A DNA stretch of 58,913 nt, counting the filler. It is 7 parts of 7 records of this genome, joined end to end, with 100 filler letters (N's around TTAATTAATTAA, not from the genome) between each part and the next. Parts side by side here need not be neighbours in the genome. Positions count along the whole stretch, not along the records: positions 19,227 to 28,189 come from DRR723986_15508; 6 more parts are not named here. One strand, 5' to 3'. Positions 2,204 to 28,289 of the stretch are shown one piece after another. The position numbers were made by a program, and so were the translations under genes. The notes under the pieces are model-generated. The model was not told the DNA's origin, did not search any database, and worked only from the letters and a program-made list of their open reading frames with translations. The number at the start of each line of letters is the position of its first letter. Position 1 is the stretch's first letter.

Positions 2204-3916
2204 CTAAAACATGAAATAGCGCTGGGCCATGGGCAGCACTTTTGCAGGTTCGCAGGTTAATATTTCGCCGTCAGCCTTCACTTCATACGTTTCAGGGTCA
2301 ACGGTTACATCTGGTGCATGGTTATTATGAATCATAGCCGATTTATTCACCGCACCGCGGGTGTCTTTCACTGCGATCAATTGCTTCCGCAAACCATAAA
2401 GGTCACCGATCCCACTCGACAAACCCGCTTCAGAAACAAAGGTCACACTGGAGGCTGTTAGGCTTGCACCAAAAGCCCCGAACATAGGGCGGTAGTGCAC
2501 GGGTTGTGGTGTTGGGATAGATGCGTTTGGGTCTCCCATCAACGCGGCAGCAATGGTCCCCATTTTCAAAATCAGATCAGGCTTCACGCCAAAGAAAGCC
2601 GGTGACCACAAAACAAGATCTGCAAGCTTACCAACTTCCACCGAGCCTATATGCGCGCCCATACCGTGGGTGATTGCAGGATTAATAGTATATTTTGCGA
2701 TATAGCGTTTTACACGGACATTATCATTATCGCCGATTTCTTCGGGCAAACTGCCCCGCTGACGCTTCATTTTATCTGCGGTTTGCCATGTGCGGATGAT
2801 AACTTCACCCACGCGACCCATTGCTTGACTATCCGATGCAATTATCGAAAAGGCCCCCATATCGTGCAATATGTCTTCGGCGGCAATCGTTTCCTTGCGA
2901 ATGCGGCTTTCCGCAAAAGCTATATCTTCCGGGATTGAAGGATCAAGATGATGACAGACCATCAGCATATCCAAATGTTCTTCAACCGTATTAACAGTAT
3001 AAGGGCGGGTTGGGTTTGTTGAAGAAGGAATGAAATTCTCATACCCCACAACCTTGATAATATCTGGCGCATGGCCACCACCGGCGCCTTCCGTATGAAA
3101 AGCATGAATTGTGCGGCCGTTTATGGCCTTGATTGTGTCTTCCACAAATCCGCTTTCATTGAGCGTGTCTGTGTGAATCATCACCTGCACGTCCATCTCG
3201 TCTGCCACGCTCAAACAGGTATCGATAGCCGCTGGCGTGGTGCCCCAGTCTTCATGTAGTTTAAGGGCGCAGGCACCTGCTTTAATCTGCTCTTCAAGCG
3301 CGGCTGGCGTGCTTGCGTTGCCTTTACCCGCGAACGCCAAATTCATTGGGAAGGCCTCAGCAGACTGCAACATGCGTTCAATGTGCCACGGACCCGGCGT
3401 ACAGGTGGTGGCATTGGTGCCGGTCGCCGGGCCTGTGCCGCCGCCCAGCATGGTGGTAACACCGCTCATCAGCGCTTCTTCAATTTGCTGCGGGCATATA
3501 TAATGGATATGTGCATCAAAACCACCAGCGGTTAGGATCTTGCCTTCGCCAGCGATTGCCTCGGTTCCCGGCCCAACAATAAAGTCCACACCGTCCTGTA
3601 CATCGGGGTTGCCGCCTTTACCAATGGCGTGAATACGCCCATCCTTAAGGCCGACATCTGCTTTAACAATACTCGTGTGGTCAATGATCAACGCATTGGT
3701 GATGATAGTATCCACTGCGCCGTGAGCGCGGGTGGTTTGAGATTGCCCCATACCGTCGCGAATAACCTTACCACCACCAAATTTCACTTCGTTGCCATAG
3801 GTGGTGAAATCCTTCTCCACCTCTACAAACAGTTCCGTGTCTGCAAGGCGAACTTTATCGCCCACTGTGGGACCAAACATAGCGGCGTAATCGCTGCGTT
3901 TCATCGTGTAAGCCAT
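2204..3916 (-). CDS. ureC: Urease subunit alpha
   Basis: [44 protein letters not shown]; 570 aa. Confidence 0.99.
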
Positions 3917-5956: not shown

Positions 5957-6056
5957 NNNNNNNNNNNNNNNNNNNNNNNNNNNNNNNNNNNNNNNNNNNN
6001 TTAATTAATTAANNNNNNNNNNNNNNNNNNNNNNNNNNNNNNNNNNNNNNNNNNNN
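5957..6056. other. Artificial contig linker
   Basis: N44-TTAATTAATTAA-N44, giving stops in all six frames. Confidence 0.99.
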
Positions 6057-24625: not shown

Positions 24626-26557
24626 TTAGCGCCGCTCTTTCAGAATGCCCTGGAAATAGCCCGACAATGCTTCATGGGCATCCAGCGGCAATACCTGGGC
24701 GACGTATTGATCCGGCCGGACGATGACCAAACAGCCTTTATCCCGGTCAATGCCGCGCAATTCGAAAATGTCGTTGCCGCTTTTGAGATCCGGGCAGAAC
24801 ATCTTTTCATAGTCCCTCAGCCCGTAGCGGCCTTTTGCCGGCAGCAGCAGTGACGGCATGCGTTCAAGGGTCAGATCGCGATGGTTTTGCTGGAAGACTG
24901 CGCGAAGATCGATAACCGCATCTATATCCTCACCTGCCGCCGTATGACGCAAAACCGGTGAGCTCTGATCGTCTTGCAGAAAGTTACATAGACGACGGAT
25001 AGCCGACGTTTCCGCTGCCGGGTCGCCTTTATCGGCAAAGGCGAAGATCCGCCAGCGACCGTCCGCCTTTACGACATGGCCCAGCTGTACCGGCTTGGCG
25101 TCGGCAAGACGAACGACAGGGGCGGAATGAAACCGCATGCCGATCTGGAAACCTTCCGCCAATTGCTGATGCGCGCCGTCACCCGTCAACAGGGACGGGA
25201 GATAGCGCGAGGCTGTCCCGGCGGTATAACGGCCATGCTGCACAAAGTATTTCTGAACTTCAGCCGGTTCGACGCCATCGGGATTGCTTTCCGATCTCAC
25301 CGGCGCGCTGACAAGCTTTGCCCATTCCCGGTCGAAATCGATCAGGTTCTGCGCAATCGCCTGGCGTTCGGCCGAATAGCTGGCAAGCAGCTCCGGTTCG
25401 CTCAGTCCCTTCAGTACGTGGGCGAGTTTCCAGCCAAGATTGAACGTGTCCTGCATGGAGACGTTCATGCCCTGCCCGGCCTTAGGGCTGTGCGTGTGGC
25501 AGGCATCGCCTGCAATAAAAACGTGAGGCAAGCGGCCCGGAGCACCTTCTGCCGGAACATCATCGAACTTGTCGCAAAGCCGCTGACCGATTTCGTAGAC
25601 CGACCACCAGGCGACTTCCTTCACGTCGAGAGAATAGGGATGAAGGATGCGTCCGGCTGCGGCGATCAGATGATCGACCGTAATGTTCCGGTTCGCGACC
25701 CGCTCGTCCGGCCGCAGCTTGTCGAGTTCGACATAGATGCGGACCAGATATCCGCCTTCACGCGGAATGATCAGGATGCTGCCTTCACTGGCCGACTGCA
25801 CCAACGCCTTGAAGCGGATATCCGGGAAGTCCGTCACGGCAAGAACGTCCATCACGCCCCAGGCCTGATTGGCACTGTCGCCCTTCAACTCGCGGCCCAG
25901 CGCCCTGCGCACGGAACTGCGGGCGCCGTCGCAACCGACAACGTATCTTGCGCGTACCGTTTCCGTTTCACCTTCGTGTCCGGGGTCCATGCGTTCCAGC
26001 TGAACCGTAACCGGCCACTCCCGCCCTGCTTCAACCGCCATATCCAGATCGACCAGCCGGCGGGAGTAGTTGGGCTCCAACCTGTTTGGCGAATTGCGCA
26101 TGATCTCGAGATAAAAGTCGTGAACGCGCGCCTGGTTCAATATGACATGCGGAAACTCGGACAGACCGTCCTCGACATCCTGAACCCTGCCGCTGCGGGC
26201 GATCGTGTCCGGAGACGCCGGGTCCGGTTTCCAGAAAGTGGTCTCGTTGACCCAGTAAGCTTCCTTTTCCAGTCGCTCGGCAAAGCCGAACGCCTCGAAC
26301 ATTTCCATTGTCCGGCAGGCGACACCATCCGCCTGGCCAAGCTGCAAGGGGCCGGCTTTCTGCTCCACGATACGGGTTCGGATATCCGGGAAAGCCGCAA
26401 GTTGAGCGGCAAGCGTCAGGCCCGCGGGACCGCAACCGACAATGAGGACATCGACTTCTTCCGGCAGGCTGTCTGTGTTAGCCAGGGCAGTGGCGTCGGC
26501 ATTAGGTTCATGAATGACCGGATCACCGGTCTTGAAGCCGTCGAGATGAAATTGCAT
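24626..26557 (-). CDS. Phenol 2-monooxygenase family flavoprotein, 3-hydroxybenzoate 4-hydroxylase (MobA)-like
   Basis: MQFHLDGF start, GCGPAG, GCDGARS, GDACHTHSPKAGQGMN, C-terminal VRPDQYV thioredoxin-like domain. Confidence 0.9.
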   Translation of the reverse strand: MQFHLDGFKTGDPVIHEPNADATALANTDSLPEEVDVLIVGCGPAGLTLAAQLAAFPDIRTRIVEQKAGPLQLGQADGVACRTMEMFEAFGFAERLEKEAYWVNETTFWKPDPASPDTIARSGRVQDVEDGLSEFPHVILNQARVHDFYLEIMRNSPNRLEPNYSRRLVDLDMAVEAGREWPVTVQLERMDPGHEGETETVRARYVVGCDGARSSVRRALGRELKGDSANQAWGVMDVLAVTDFPDIRFKALVQSASEGSILIIPREGGYLVRIYVELDKLRPDERVANRNITVDHLIAAAGRILHPYSLDVKEVAWWSVYEIGQRLCDKFDDVPAEGAPGRLPHVFIAGDACHTHSPKAGQGMNVSMQDTFNLGWKLAHVLKGLSEPELLASYSAERQAIAQNLIDFDREWAKLVSAPVRSESNPDGVEPAEVQKYFVQHGRYTAGTASRYLPSLLTGDGAHQQLAEGFQIGMRFHSAPVVRLADAKPVQLGHVVKADGRWRIFAFADKGDPAAETSAIRRLCNFLQDDQSSPVLRHTAAGEDIDAVIDLRAVFQQNHRDLTLERMPSLLLPAKGRYGLRDYEKMFCPDLKSGNDIFELRGIDRDKGCLVIVRPDQYVAQVLPLDAHEALSGYFQGILKERR

Positions 26558-26750: not shown

Positions 26751-26800
26751 GAAAGCATACTGATTATCAGCATGCTGTCAAATATAATCAGCATACTTCC
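26751..26800. promoter_or_regulatory. Three imperfect palindromes, probable MarR operators
   Basis: GAAAGCATACTGAT, ATCAGCATGCTGTC and ATCAGCATACTTCC between the divergent hydroxylase and MarR genes. Confidence 0.65.
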
Positions 26801-26825
26801 TTTTCTGAACTCCCTGGAGGCGGCG

Positions 26826-27305
26826 ATGCGAAACCTTGAACAGATGCCCGGACACCTGATCCGCCGTTTGCAGCAGATCGCGGTGGCAGTGTTTCATACG
26901 GAAGTGGATGCCGTCGGATTCGACATGACGCCGGTGCAATTCGCGGCGCTGGTCCGGGTGGCGGAAAACCCGGGCATTGACCAGATAACGCTGGCAGGCC
27001 TGATTGCCTATGACCGGACCACGATAGCCGGCGTTGTCGACCGGCTGGTGCAGAAGGGCTTCCTGTCACGCGCCGTGAGCGAAAAGGACAGGCGCGCAAA
27101 GGTGCTTCACATGACAGACGCCGGAACCGATGCGCTGTCGCGGCTTGGCCCTGCGGTGGAAAAGGCGCAACAGGTGATGCTAAGCGGGCTCGACCGCCAA
27201 GAGGCTGACGATTTCATGCGTCTGTTGCAAAAGGCAACAGAGGCGGTCAACGACCTCAGCCGCGCGCCACTGCGTTCCGGTTCAAAGGCTGCGGAAAAAG
27301 ACTGA
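26826..27305 (+). CDS. MarR family regulator (MobR-like)
   Basis: PGHLIRRLQQ, TPVQF, DRLVQKG, DRRAK; GGAGG RBS. Confidence 0.93.
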   Translation: MRNLEQMPGHLIRRLQQIAVAVFHTEVDAVGFDMTPVQFAALVRVAENPGIDQITLAGLIAYDRTTIAGVVDRLVQKGFLSRAVSEKDRRAKVLHMTDAGTDALSRLGPAVEKAQQVMLSGLDRQEADDFMRLLQKATEAVNDLSRAPLRSGSKAAEKD

Positions 27306-27348: not shown

Positions 27349-27843
27349 CTATTTCCCTGCCCAGAAATCCGCCTGCAGGCCGGCCGCTTCCTCTTCCAGA
27401 AGCGGACCGACAACCTCCACCTTGCGTTGCCCCGCCGCAAACACCGTCCTGCAGGGCAGATCGAGTGTCGGATTTTCCTCGTGATCGCCCGTCTGTTCCT
27501 TCAGGGACTTTTCGGTCTGGCCAAAGACGACCCGACCAATGCCCGCCCAGTATACGGCACCGGAGCACATGGCGCACGGCTCTGCCGACGTGTACATGGT
27601 GCAGCTTTCCAGAAAATCCGGGCGCCAGCGCTTGCTTGCCCGTGTCGCCAGCAGCCTTTCGGCGTGGGCGGTCATGTCCTGCCCTTCGGCGGAATAACCG
27701 TTACCCTGCTCCATCAGAACCTCTCCGTCCGGGCCTGCCAGCAGGCAGCCAAATGGATGATCGCCCGTTTCCCGCGCCTGTCGCGCGATTTCGAATGCCC
27801 GGCGCAACAGCGCGATATCTTTGTCGTCATGAGTATCGGTCAC
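27349..27843 (-). CDS. Nucleoside/nucleobase deaminase (CDA fold, guanine-deaminase-like)
   Basis: HAE and EPCAMC zinc motifs; AAGGAG RBS before GTG. Confidence 0.92.
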   Translation of the reverse strand: MTDTHDDKDIALLRRAFEIARQARETGDHPFGCLLAGPDGEVLMEQGNGYSAEGQDMTAHAERLLATRASKRWRPDFLESCTMYTSAEPCAMCSGAVYWAGIGRVVFGQTEKSLKEQTGDHEENPTLDLPCRTVFAAGQRKVEVVGPLLEEEAAGLQADFWAGK

Positions 27844-28058
27844 GCAAGGCTCCTTTGATTTCTTCCCCCCTGAAGGGAGCATGAACACGCTCACCCCGCA
27901 AGACTTTGCAAACAGTCAGTCACGTTGAACAGAAACACATCAAAAGACTGGCAATTTAAAAGGCAACTGCTGAAATATTGGCCTCTTGATCACTATTCTC
28001 GCGGTTTCATCTTGAGGCTTTCTTGACAAAAATCGCGCACCGGTTTCCCGTAGAGGTC

Positions 28059-28097
28059 GAGTAGAAGCGGTGGAGCCCAACGGTTCCGACATTGCTC
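28059..28097 (+). ncRNA. Probable xanthine-I (NMT1 motif) riboswitch, compact variant
   Basis: GAGTAGAAGCG...hairpin GAGCC-CAAC-GGTTC...CGACATTGCTC matches the recalled NMT1 frame GAGUAGAAGCG...CGGAAAUUGCUC; next to a purine-type deaminase and 5' of an AGGAG-ATG gene start. Confidence 0.7.
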
Positions 28098-28189
28098 ATC
28101 TTTCAGTTGATCGACGATGCCCGGCACGAACGCGCCCGCATCCAAGACCAGGAGATGAGAATGCCGGCCGAAGACAACAAAACGCTCCC

Positions 28190-28289
28190 NNNNNNNNNNN
28201 NNNNNNNNNNNNNNNNNNNNNNNNNNNNNNNNNTTAATTAATTAANNNNNNNNNNNNNNNNNNNNNNNNNNNNNNNNNNNNNNNNNNNN
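28190..28289. other. Artificial contig linker
   Basis: N44-TTAATTAATTAA-N44. Confidence 0.99.

Follow-up and report, generated by a model that had tools for sequence, protein, structure and literature searches.

A Compact Form of the Xanthine-I (NMT1 Motif) Aptamer with a Two-Base-Pair P2a Stem in the Leader of a Binding-Protein Transporter Operon

Architecture of the Locus

The stretch of DNA under study (the window; 58,913 nucleotides (nt) in length) contains, at positions 28059–28097 of its plus strand, the sequence GAGUAGAAGCGGUGGAGCCCAACGGUUCCGACAUUGCUC, in exact agreement with the transcription of a first-pass annotation that had proposed a variant xanthine-I (NMT1 motif) riboswitch. 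The element lies between a divergently oriented deaminase gene of the cytidine deaminase (CDA) fold and a reading frame that is cut by the end of its contig. On the evidence set out below, we assign a probability of roughly 0.8 to the reading that this element is a functional xanthine-I aptamer, shortened and in an ordinary gene context, that still recognizes xanthine or uric acid and acts through translational control. The aptamer comprises the following elements, in which "9 of 9" refers to the aligned compact sequences described below.

28054..28102, plus strand: match to positions 1–56 of the RF03054 model, 31.0 bits
28059..28063, plus strand: 5′ strand of P1, GAGUA, which includes U5 and A6 and pairs with 28093–28097; invariant in 9 of 9
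28064..28069, plus strand: 5′ strand of J1, GAAGCG (G7, A8, A9, G10, C11, G12), the ligand-pocket strand; equal to the Rfam consensus and invariant in 9 of 9
28070..28071, plus strand: 5′ strand of P2a, G13 and U14, two base pairs (bp) against three in the consensus, forming G–C and U–A pairs with 28090 and 28089; 9 of 9
28072..28087, plus strand: P2b hairpin, GGAGCC-CAAC-GGUUCC; 97.2% of cells paired, closing pair covaries
28088, plus strand: single bulged G, remnant of J2 and candidate equivalent of G35, between the covarying pair and A37; invariant in 9 of 9
28089..28090, plus strand: 3′ strand of P2a, A37 and C38, the latter being the C of the "ACA" in the first-pass annotation
28091..28092, plus strand: 3′ strand of J1, A39 and U40, pocket nucleotides that are unchanged by sequence and Rfam alignment
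28093..28097, plus strand: 3′ strand of P1, UGCUC, which pairs with GAGUA; all five pairs in 9 of 9

In a permissive Rfam scan of positions 27850–28190 (341 nt), the element matches the full model (positions 1–56) of RF03054 (Xanthine/NMT1) at 28054–28102 on the plus strand with a score of 31.0 bits and an E-value of 4e-5, a value that becomes ~170 times larger if rescaled to the whole window. This score does not reach the RF03054 gathering score of 36 bits, which is an operational cut-off, and the match is absent from a scan of the whole window at gathering thresholds. All of the score loss is due to deletions, which remove model positions 19–20 (C, A) and 41–42 (G, G) as well as three positions in the terminal hairpin. 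Throughout P1 and on each side of the large junction, the sequence is identical to the RF03054 consensus, with no substitutions in J1; what takes the score below the cut-off is the reduction of stem P2a and bulge J2 to two base pairs and one bulged G. The permissive scan found no second aptamer before the deaminase gene on either strand of 27850–28190.

The window is composed of contig pieces (at least seven) joined by six linkers, N runs around TTAATTAATTAA, at positions 6001, 11794, 19171, 28234, 34424, and 45302. It is thus an artificial chain, and genes flanking a linker are therefore not genomic neighbors. The piece that bears the aptamer ends at 28189, and a mandelate-racemase-like gene after 28290, beyond the linker, is unrelated to the riboswitch. 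The sole listing in the window at gathering thresholds is 5_ureB_sRNA (RF02514) at 3475–3763 on the plus strand (113.1 bits, E-value 5.5e-29), which probably reflects conserved urease-gene sequence and not a small RNA.

Comparison with the Crystal Structure and the Published Alignment

As described in the text of Xu et al. 2021 (PMC8266621), the top of P1 in the crystallized aptamer is formed by U5–G42 and A6–U41, J1 consists of G7, A8, A9, G10, C11, and G12 on the 5′ side and A39 and U40 on the 3′ side, P2a contains the pairs 13–38, 14–37, and C15–G36, and J2 places A16 opposite C33, C34, and G35. Xanthine is clamped by G10 and U40 and stacks between a pair of base triples, A6–U41–A9 and A39–G35–C11; G35 comes from J2, and C34, also of J2, stacks on G12 in the roof of the pocket (PMC8266621). 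Binding is lost in mutants of A8, A9, G10, U40, C11, or G35 and in the G7A-A8G double mutant, and compensatory swaps of C11 and G35 abolish it as well, whereas changes at G12, C34, and A16 are tolerated, with losses of at most 4-fold for C34 and A16 (PMC8266621).

The nucleotides required by these mutation data are all present in the window: U5–G42, A6–U41, G7, A8, A9, G10, C11, A39, U40, and a G in the position of J2. Read from the 5′ end, an unchanged U5–G12 segment (28062–28069) is followed by G13 and U14, the hairpin, G28088, A37, C38, A39, and U40, and then by U41, G42, C, U, and C. P1 is closed by U5–G42 and A6–U41, J1 is conserved, and P2 does not show the division by J2 into a 3-bp P2a and a P2b; C15–G36 (the third P2a pair), A16, and one or two nucleotides of J2 are absent. 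The pair at positions 13–38, a covarying pair of P2a, is G13–C38 in the window and U13–A38 in the Ideonella crystal RNA.

The first-pass annotation had described an asymmetric internal loop and a short hairpin closed by P1 (GAGUA/UGCUC), all of which are present at 28059–28097, and its assignment to an NMT1-motif (xanthine-I) aptamer more compact than the consensus agrees with the full-model match and the 2-bp P2a. It was right, too, on a marginal score against the Rfam NMT1 model (31.0 against 36 bits) and on a coherent set of look-alike homologs in Alphaproteobacteria. Two of its comparisons with the crystallized RNA do not hold. The 5′ strands, said to be the same, differ at position 13, and the supposedly altered 3′ junction (ACA in place of GAAA) is in fact A39–U40, which is unchanged, the C being position 38, paired with G13 in P2a.

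The state singled out as unusual is, moreover, common. In the published alignment, a file of 649 rows that was read whole (Supplemental File S1 of Yu & Breaker 2020, PMC7373994), the 3′ strand GAC-AUUGCUC, which is also the Rfam consensus, is the commonest state, with 220 rows; GAA-AUUGCUC is found in 162, GGA-AUUGCUC in 22, and G-AC-AUUGCUC in one. The 5′ strand GAAGCGGU has 201 occurrences in the same alignment, and the Serratia RNA used for the published measurements of xanthine binding is of the GAC type. The real peculiarity of the window's aptamer is its 2-bp P2a with a one-nucleotide J2, outside the nucleotides that touch the ligand. Because the difference is confined to P2a and J2, there is no sequence basis for an altered specificity. 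The compact form is best read, by sequence, as derived from the GCGGUCAG...GGGAC type by loss of CA and GG. From the same comparison, we infer that the bulged G28088 takes over the function of G35, forming a long-range pair with C11 (28068) that would roof the ligand pocket.

In summary of its relation to the xanthine-I class, the window's aptamer shares the U–G and A–U pairs at the top of P1, the GAAGCG and AU strands of J1, the pairs G13–C38 and U14–A37, and a variable P2b, as well as a proteobacterial host, the associated genes (NMT1/THI5 protein, ATP-binding cassette (ABC) transporter, PRK12393, 2-oxoglutarate (2OG) dioxygenase, and tadA-like), and a platform that lacks a terminator and is based on the ribosome site. 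It differs in having a P2a of two rather than three base pairs, in having one bulged G in place of a J2 in which A16 faces N33-N34-G35, in scoring 31.0 bits where 36 are required, and in a coupled or fused leader reading frame whose layout predicts ON switching, in contrast to the published OFF.

Conservation and Distribution of the Compact Form

A query of species genomes with the deaminase protein gave 103 qualifying loci, of which the best 80 were kept; in seven of these 80 (L001–L007, from Stappia, Roseibium, and Labrenzia), the compact RNA is present between the same flanks. In a sample of 121 genomes drawn from one family and searched with RF03054, matches are observed in 14 genomes, 13 of which carry two copies ~4 kilobases (kb) apart. 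Both copies exceed the threshold in four of the 13, and in the other nine the upstream copy is compact and sub-threshold (26.7–33.4 bits), eight of these copies being intact and one degenerate. The leader of locus L107 (genome G094) is identical to that of the window. A further natural variant of P2a and J2 is seen in L104 (G114), in which U14 is missing, leaving A37 unpaired, and the score is 39.5 bits.

Across nine aligned compact sequences, 98.4% of the cells in the pair count are paired, and two pairs are changed on both sides: the closing pair of P2b beside the bulged G, which is A–U in five sequences and G–C in three, and the second pair, which is A–U in eight and G–C in one. The observed covariation score is reached by none of 500 shuffles, and slid controls pair at 28–48%. 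Of the 50 alignment columns, 34 are invariant. With the identical L107 left out, identity to the window is 79–95% in the aptamer, 49–73% in the spacer, and 54–77% in the upstream DNA.

The same architecture is visualized outside this clade. A pattern scan of metagenomes yielded nine loci, of which three belong to the same clade and two (L118 and L119) to an independent lineage that has the one-G-bulge form with a P2b of AGGGC/GCCCU and a 3-nt loop; these two have the flank CUCAUCGG and CCGAUGA downstream. The remaining four (L113–L116) were rejected as chance matches in coding DNA that have no P1. A search of 401 sampled alphaproteobacterial genomes with the compact-form pattern returned three matches, of which that in G001 is the sole real aptamer among those inspected (L110 left out); the match L112, which lacks P1 and is apparently coding DNA, was rejected.

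By eye, one of the 649 published rows, NZ_AQQX01000002.1/155704-155669, has the same compact architecture, with gaps at A16 and at the GGG columns and a single G before A37–C38; it differs in the sequence of P2b. An intermediate with a 2-bp P2a and a small J2, NZ_KB822693.1/389798-389749, and two more rows that are otherwise irregular were also noted. The alignment lists only the canonical copies on the contigs of Roseibium aggregatum IAM 12614 and Labrenzia sp. OB1, the compact copies being missing. The text of Yu & Breaker 2020 (PMC7373994), in the part available to us, does not discuss compact forms, and full-text literature searches, figures aside, brought to light no account of an NMT1 subtype lacking J2 or of an NMT1 variant that binds a new ligand.

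The degenerate copy mentioned above, in G082 (L109, minus strand), has an A inserted in the 3′ junction (J1) and an A–G mismatch at the closing pair of P2b. In this genome, the compact and canonical aptamers are 332 nt apart, the genes for the transporter have been deleted, and no more than a stub is left of the binding-protein gene. Judged from its sequence, the compact copy appears to be decaying after the loss of the genes that it regulated.

Gene Context

On the other side of the intergenic region from the leader lies a gene of a type that accompanies NMT1 loci.

27349..27846, minus strand: divergent CDA-fold deaminase gene, the "tadA"-type partner at NMT1 loci (PF00383, 73 bits, E-value 2e-20)

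The nearest solved chains to this deaminase are 8wlw and 5xko (E-value ~3e-20), followed by TadA and guanine deaminases; the 5xko enzyme is presumably one that acts on isoguanine and 5-azacytosine. The genes downstream of the aptamer are visualized in relatives. The open reading frame that follows the identical leader of L107 runs into a protein with the PF09084 NMT1 domain (151.7 bits), and L001 shows the whole operon, which comprises genes for an NMT1/THI5-type binding protein (PF09084, 153.6 bits), for an ABC ATPase and a permease, and for a PRK12393 amidohydrolase (604 bits); a canonical aptamer (49.2 bits) comes next, directly before a gene for a DIOX_N/2OG-Fe(II) oxygenase. The conserved compact form always stands ahead of such an operon of NMT1-type binding protein, ABC transporter, and amidohydrolase. 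The nearest matches to the L001 amidohydrolase are chain 2paj (E-value 1e-119), which we take to be isoxanthopterin deaminase, and 8-oxoguanine deaminase entries. The downstream genes in the relatives from Roseibium, Stappia, and Labrenzia are those of an NMT1-regulon leader in Proteobacteria. Exactly these gene families are listed for the NMT1 motif in the text of Yu & Breaker 2020 (PMC7373994). The first-pass annotation was thus correct in placing the element beside a divergent CDA-fold deaminase gene and ahead of an AGGAG-ATG, which is found 52 nt after the aptamer with a frame that runs from ATG 28161 to the cut at 28189; the downstream gene that it left to be identified is, judging from L107, that of the NMT1/THI5-type binding protein (PF09084).

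The orthologous binding-protein gene has a canonical aptamer ahead of it in both G011 (50.7 bits) and G074 (49.3 bits). Because a canonical aptamer occupies the orthologous position in these genomes, the compact form is an orthologous replacement, and the presence of canonical aptamers at that place of the operon in sister genomes is an argument for an unchanged ligand.

Every genome with the compact form has a second, canonical aptamer (42–51 bits) ~4.2 kb downstream, before the 2OG-Fe(II) oxygenase gene (L001, 1490–1540, minus strand; also L081–L084 and L096–L100). The 3′ strand of P1 in this second copy extends as GCUCC, which resembles an anti-Shine-Dalgarno sequence matching an AAGGAG ~23 nt beyond it.

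Two more genes lie beyond the deaminase gene, that of a MarR-family regulator at 26772–27305 (plus strand), which has the same position in L001, and that of a flavin adenine dinucleotide-dependent, phenol-hydroxylase-like monooxygenase at 24626–26557 (minus strand). The divergent intergenic region also contains TGCTGAAATATT at 27968–27979 (plus strand), ~80–90 nt upstream of the aptamer, a motif kept in nine of nine leaders that reads GCGGAAAT[AGT]TT in more distant relatives and may be a site for a regulator or belong to the deaminase promoter.

Expression Platform and Leader Reading Frame

The leader surrounding the aptamer contains the following features.

28023..28028, plus strand: −35-like hexamer TTGACA, ~30 nt upstream of the aptamer and at the same distance in nine of nine distinct compact leaders
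28090..28102, plus strand: anti-Shine-Dalgarno/anti-start strand CAUUGCUCAUCUU, which overlaps C38, A39, U40, and the 3′ strand of P1
28107..28149, plus strand: variable hairpin in the spacer that separates the two sequestering-helix strands, from folding; 49–73% identity to relatives
28150..28163, plus strand: Shine-Dalgarno AGGAG (28150–28154) and ATG (28161–28163), of which 28152–28163 is the partner of the anti-Shine-Dalgarno strand
28161..28189, plus strand: start of the leader reading frame, nine codons (MPAEDNKTL) plus CC, cut by the contig end
28184..28189, plus strand: first bases of a conserved element, GCUCCCGC(C)ACUC, the rest of which falls beyond the contig end; from the RNAalifold consensus of relatives

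Transcription termination was rejected as the platform on the grounds that 27840–28189 contains no terminator-like site. A strict σ70 consensus scan found no promoter, because the −10 region is not TATAAT-like. The hexamer TTGACA at 28023–28028 is, to judge by its sequence and spacing, likely part of a promoter that would place the aptamer at the mRNA's 5′ end.

In the unconstrained fold of 28052–28180, CAUU-CUCAUCUU (28090–28102) pairs over 12 bp with GAGAUGAG-AAUG (28152–28163), and P1 is unformed. This sequestering helix is present in the minimum-energy fold of seven of nine distinct leaders, in one of them only in part. The energy of the duplex lies between −10.8 and −13.9 kcal/mol in each of the 10 rows (nine distinct leaders, the window repeating L107), compared with shuffled means of −6.1 to −7.7; between zero and seven of 200 shuffles match it in each row, with none of 200 for the window at −13.9 kcal/mol. 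In leaders in which GAGAAUG has become GACGAUG, the bulge moves from G42 to the adjacent C and the pairing is retained. When P1 and J1 are forced to form, the mean unpaired probability from the Shine-Dalgarno sequence to the AUG rises in every leader, from 0.01–0.49 to 0.33–0.65.

The RNAalifold consensus of seven 200-nt leaders of relatives retains the sequestering helix together with a second helix between the 5′ half of the aptamer and GCUCCCGC..ACUC, in which columns 9–12 pair with 139–142 and columns 1–4 with 144–147 (GCGG and GAGU), as well as a conserved hairpin that covers the start of the binding-protein gene and that gene's own ribosome site. ATG 28161 is not the start of that gene and was rejected as such, since frame analysis in relatives shows that it opens a leader frame; the conserved start of the binding protein (MRMFD..., with a signal-peptide-like N terminus) lies ~75 nt past 28161, beyond the contig end. 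Among eight leaders, the frame, ~105–185 nt past the start of the aptamer, has 21–24 codons in four (L085, L087, L105, and L106), where its UGA overlaps the AUG of the gene (cUGAUG), and in the other four, which form the window's clade, it is fused in frame by a U-to-C change (cCGAUG) and a 1-nt indel. The leader peptide is not conserved across clades. The element GCUCCCGC..ACUC is read in different frames in different species and is therefore conserved as RNA, not as peptide.

Proposed Mechanism and Its Support

We propose that the aptamer stands at the start of the leader of the binding protein–ABC ATPase–permease–amidohydrolase operon that is seen whole in relatives, and that the RNA would still bind xanthine or uric acid, with G28088 paired to C11 as a substitute for G35. 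Without ligand, the 3′ half of the aptamer (28090–28102) would hide the Shine-Dalgarno sequence and AUG at 28150–28163, while, in the relatives, the 5′ half would also pair with the conserved element further down the leader. Ligand binding would free the start site of the leader frame, the translation of which may open the downstream hairpin over the ribosome site of the binding-protein gene and couple into that gene, turning the operon ON. On these modeled folds, ON with ligand is the direction that we slightly favor; switching OFF with ligand is the less probable of the two, though by a judgment that we hold only tentatively.

Several observations weigh against this reading. The score stays under the Rfam cut-off, as noted above. 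C11 and the bulged G are both invariant in the nine sequences, so that the pair proposed between them is accompanied by no covariation, and the canonical J2 and 3-bp P2a, which position G35 in the crystal, are absent. Both leader helices show one-sided (G–U/A–U) changes only, with no double compensations, among leaders of closely related Stappiaceae. Contigs from RNA libraries, which at >11 kb cover the whole region in three runs and stop at 27983 in a fourth, show neither transcription, strand, nor transcript start. Finally, the sole published reporter test for the class (Yu & Breaker 2020, PMC7373994), made in Escherichia coli with the RNA of another species, gave OFF, opposite to the direction favored here.

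Alternative Explanations

One further reading regards the one-G-bulge aptamer, with its J2 cut to one nucleotide, as a distinct functional subtype with an affinity or ligand preference unlike that of the canonical copy 4 kb downstream, so that the importer and deaminase genes on the one hand and the oxygenase gene on the other would respond to two thresholds or two related heterocycles; on this reading, which we consider unlikely, it would also switch ON by way of a coupled leader frame, contrary to the OFF behavior published for the class.

A variant class that binds some other purine, oxidized or deaminated, or else a pterin-like compound that the operon has as its substrate, in place of xanthine or urate, is rather improbable. 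J2 supplies both G35 and the stacking of C34 on G12 to the roof of the pocket (PMC8266621), and its remodeling could in principle alter the pocket. Each gene cluster contains two aptamer types, the compact one before the importer and the canonical one before the oxygenase, an arrangement that fits different signals or thresholds. The amidohydrolase, being nearest to 2paj and 8-oxoguanine deaminase, points to a substrate other than xanthine itself. Set against these points, every ligand-contacting nucleotide matches the consensus, the "ACA" is the commonest state of the class (220 of 649 rows), and in sister genomes the corresponding place in the operon is taken by a canonical aptamer. Canonical NMT1 aptamers are, in addition, already linked to PRK12393 and tadA genes (PMC7373994, text), and of the missing nucleotides, C34 and A16 tolerate mutation with losses of at most 4-fold (PMC8266621). 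A precedent for rare purine-aptamer variants with new ligands and matching gene contexts is provided by the guanine-riboswitch variants (xanthine-II, 2′-deoxyguanosine, and 8-oxoguanine; PMC9295807, PMC10556655), which, by the abstracts of these papers, carry substitutions in otherwise strictly conserved pocket nucleotides and are associated with distinct genes; the window's pocket nucleotides are unchanged and its gene context is ordinary. The new specificity that the first-pass annotation derived from changes in the pocket junction is thus not borne out, nor is the changed junction itself; what stands of its variant class is a compact NMT1 form with a set of homologs.

That the element is a decayed relic without binding activity, in a leader regulated only by alternative helices, an upstream open reading frame, or a protein factor, is very improbable. 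Such a relic would account for the score under threshold, for the loss of elements presented as important in the text on the crystal structure (PMC8266621), and for the visible degeneration of the copy in G082. It would not account for the 34 of 50 columns that stay invariant across nine sequences while the flanks fell to 49–77% identity, nor for the compensatory changes that keep P2b paired; the degenerate copy is found in precisely the genome from which the regulated genes have gone, and an independent lineage has the same architecture. A fortuitous likeness of intergenic DNA to the NMT1 consensus, for which one could cite the score below the curated cut-off and the four of nine loose-pattern metagenome hits that were chance, can be dismissed given the E-value of 4e-5, the position, flanks, and gene context kept in many genomes, and the covariation, conservation having already refuted it.

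Implications

The preferred reading, a shortened but functional xanthine-I aptamer, leaves the understood ligand range of the class as before. If the RNA does bind xanthine, it would be a natural aptamer of 36–39 nt in which the C11–G35 roof pair is provided by a single bulged nucleotide and P2a by two base pairs, and it would be useful for minimal sensors of xanthine or oxypurinol. The leader offers a testable case of a riboswitch that gates a short leader frame coupled (UGAUG) or fused to the regulated gene. With respect to annotation, copies of a validated class score too low for the Rfam cut-off, and the published alignment lacks at least two of them; the xanthine-I regulon is therefore under-counted in Stappiaceae.

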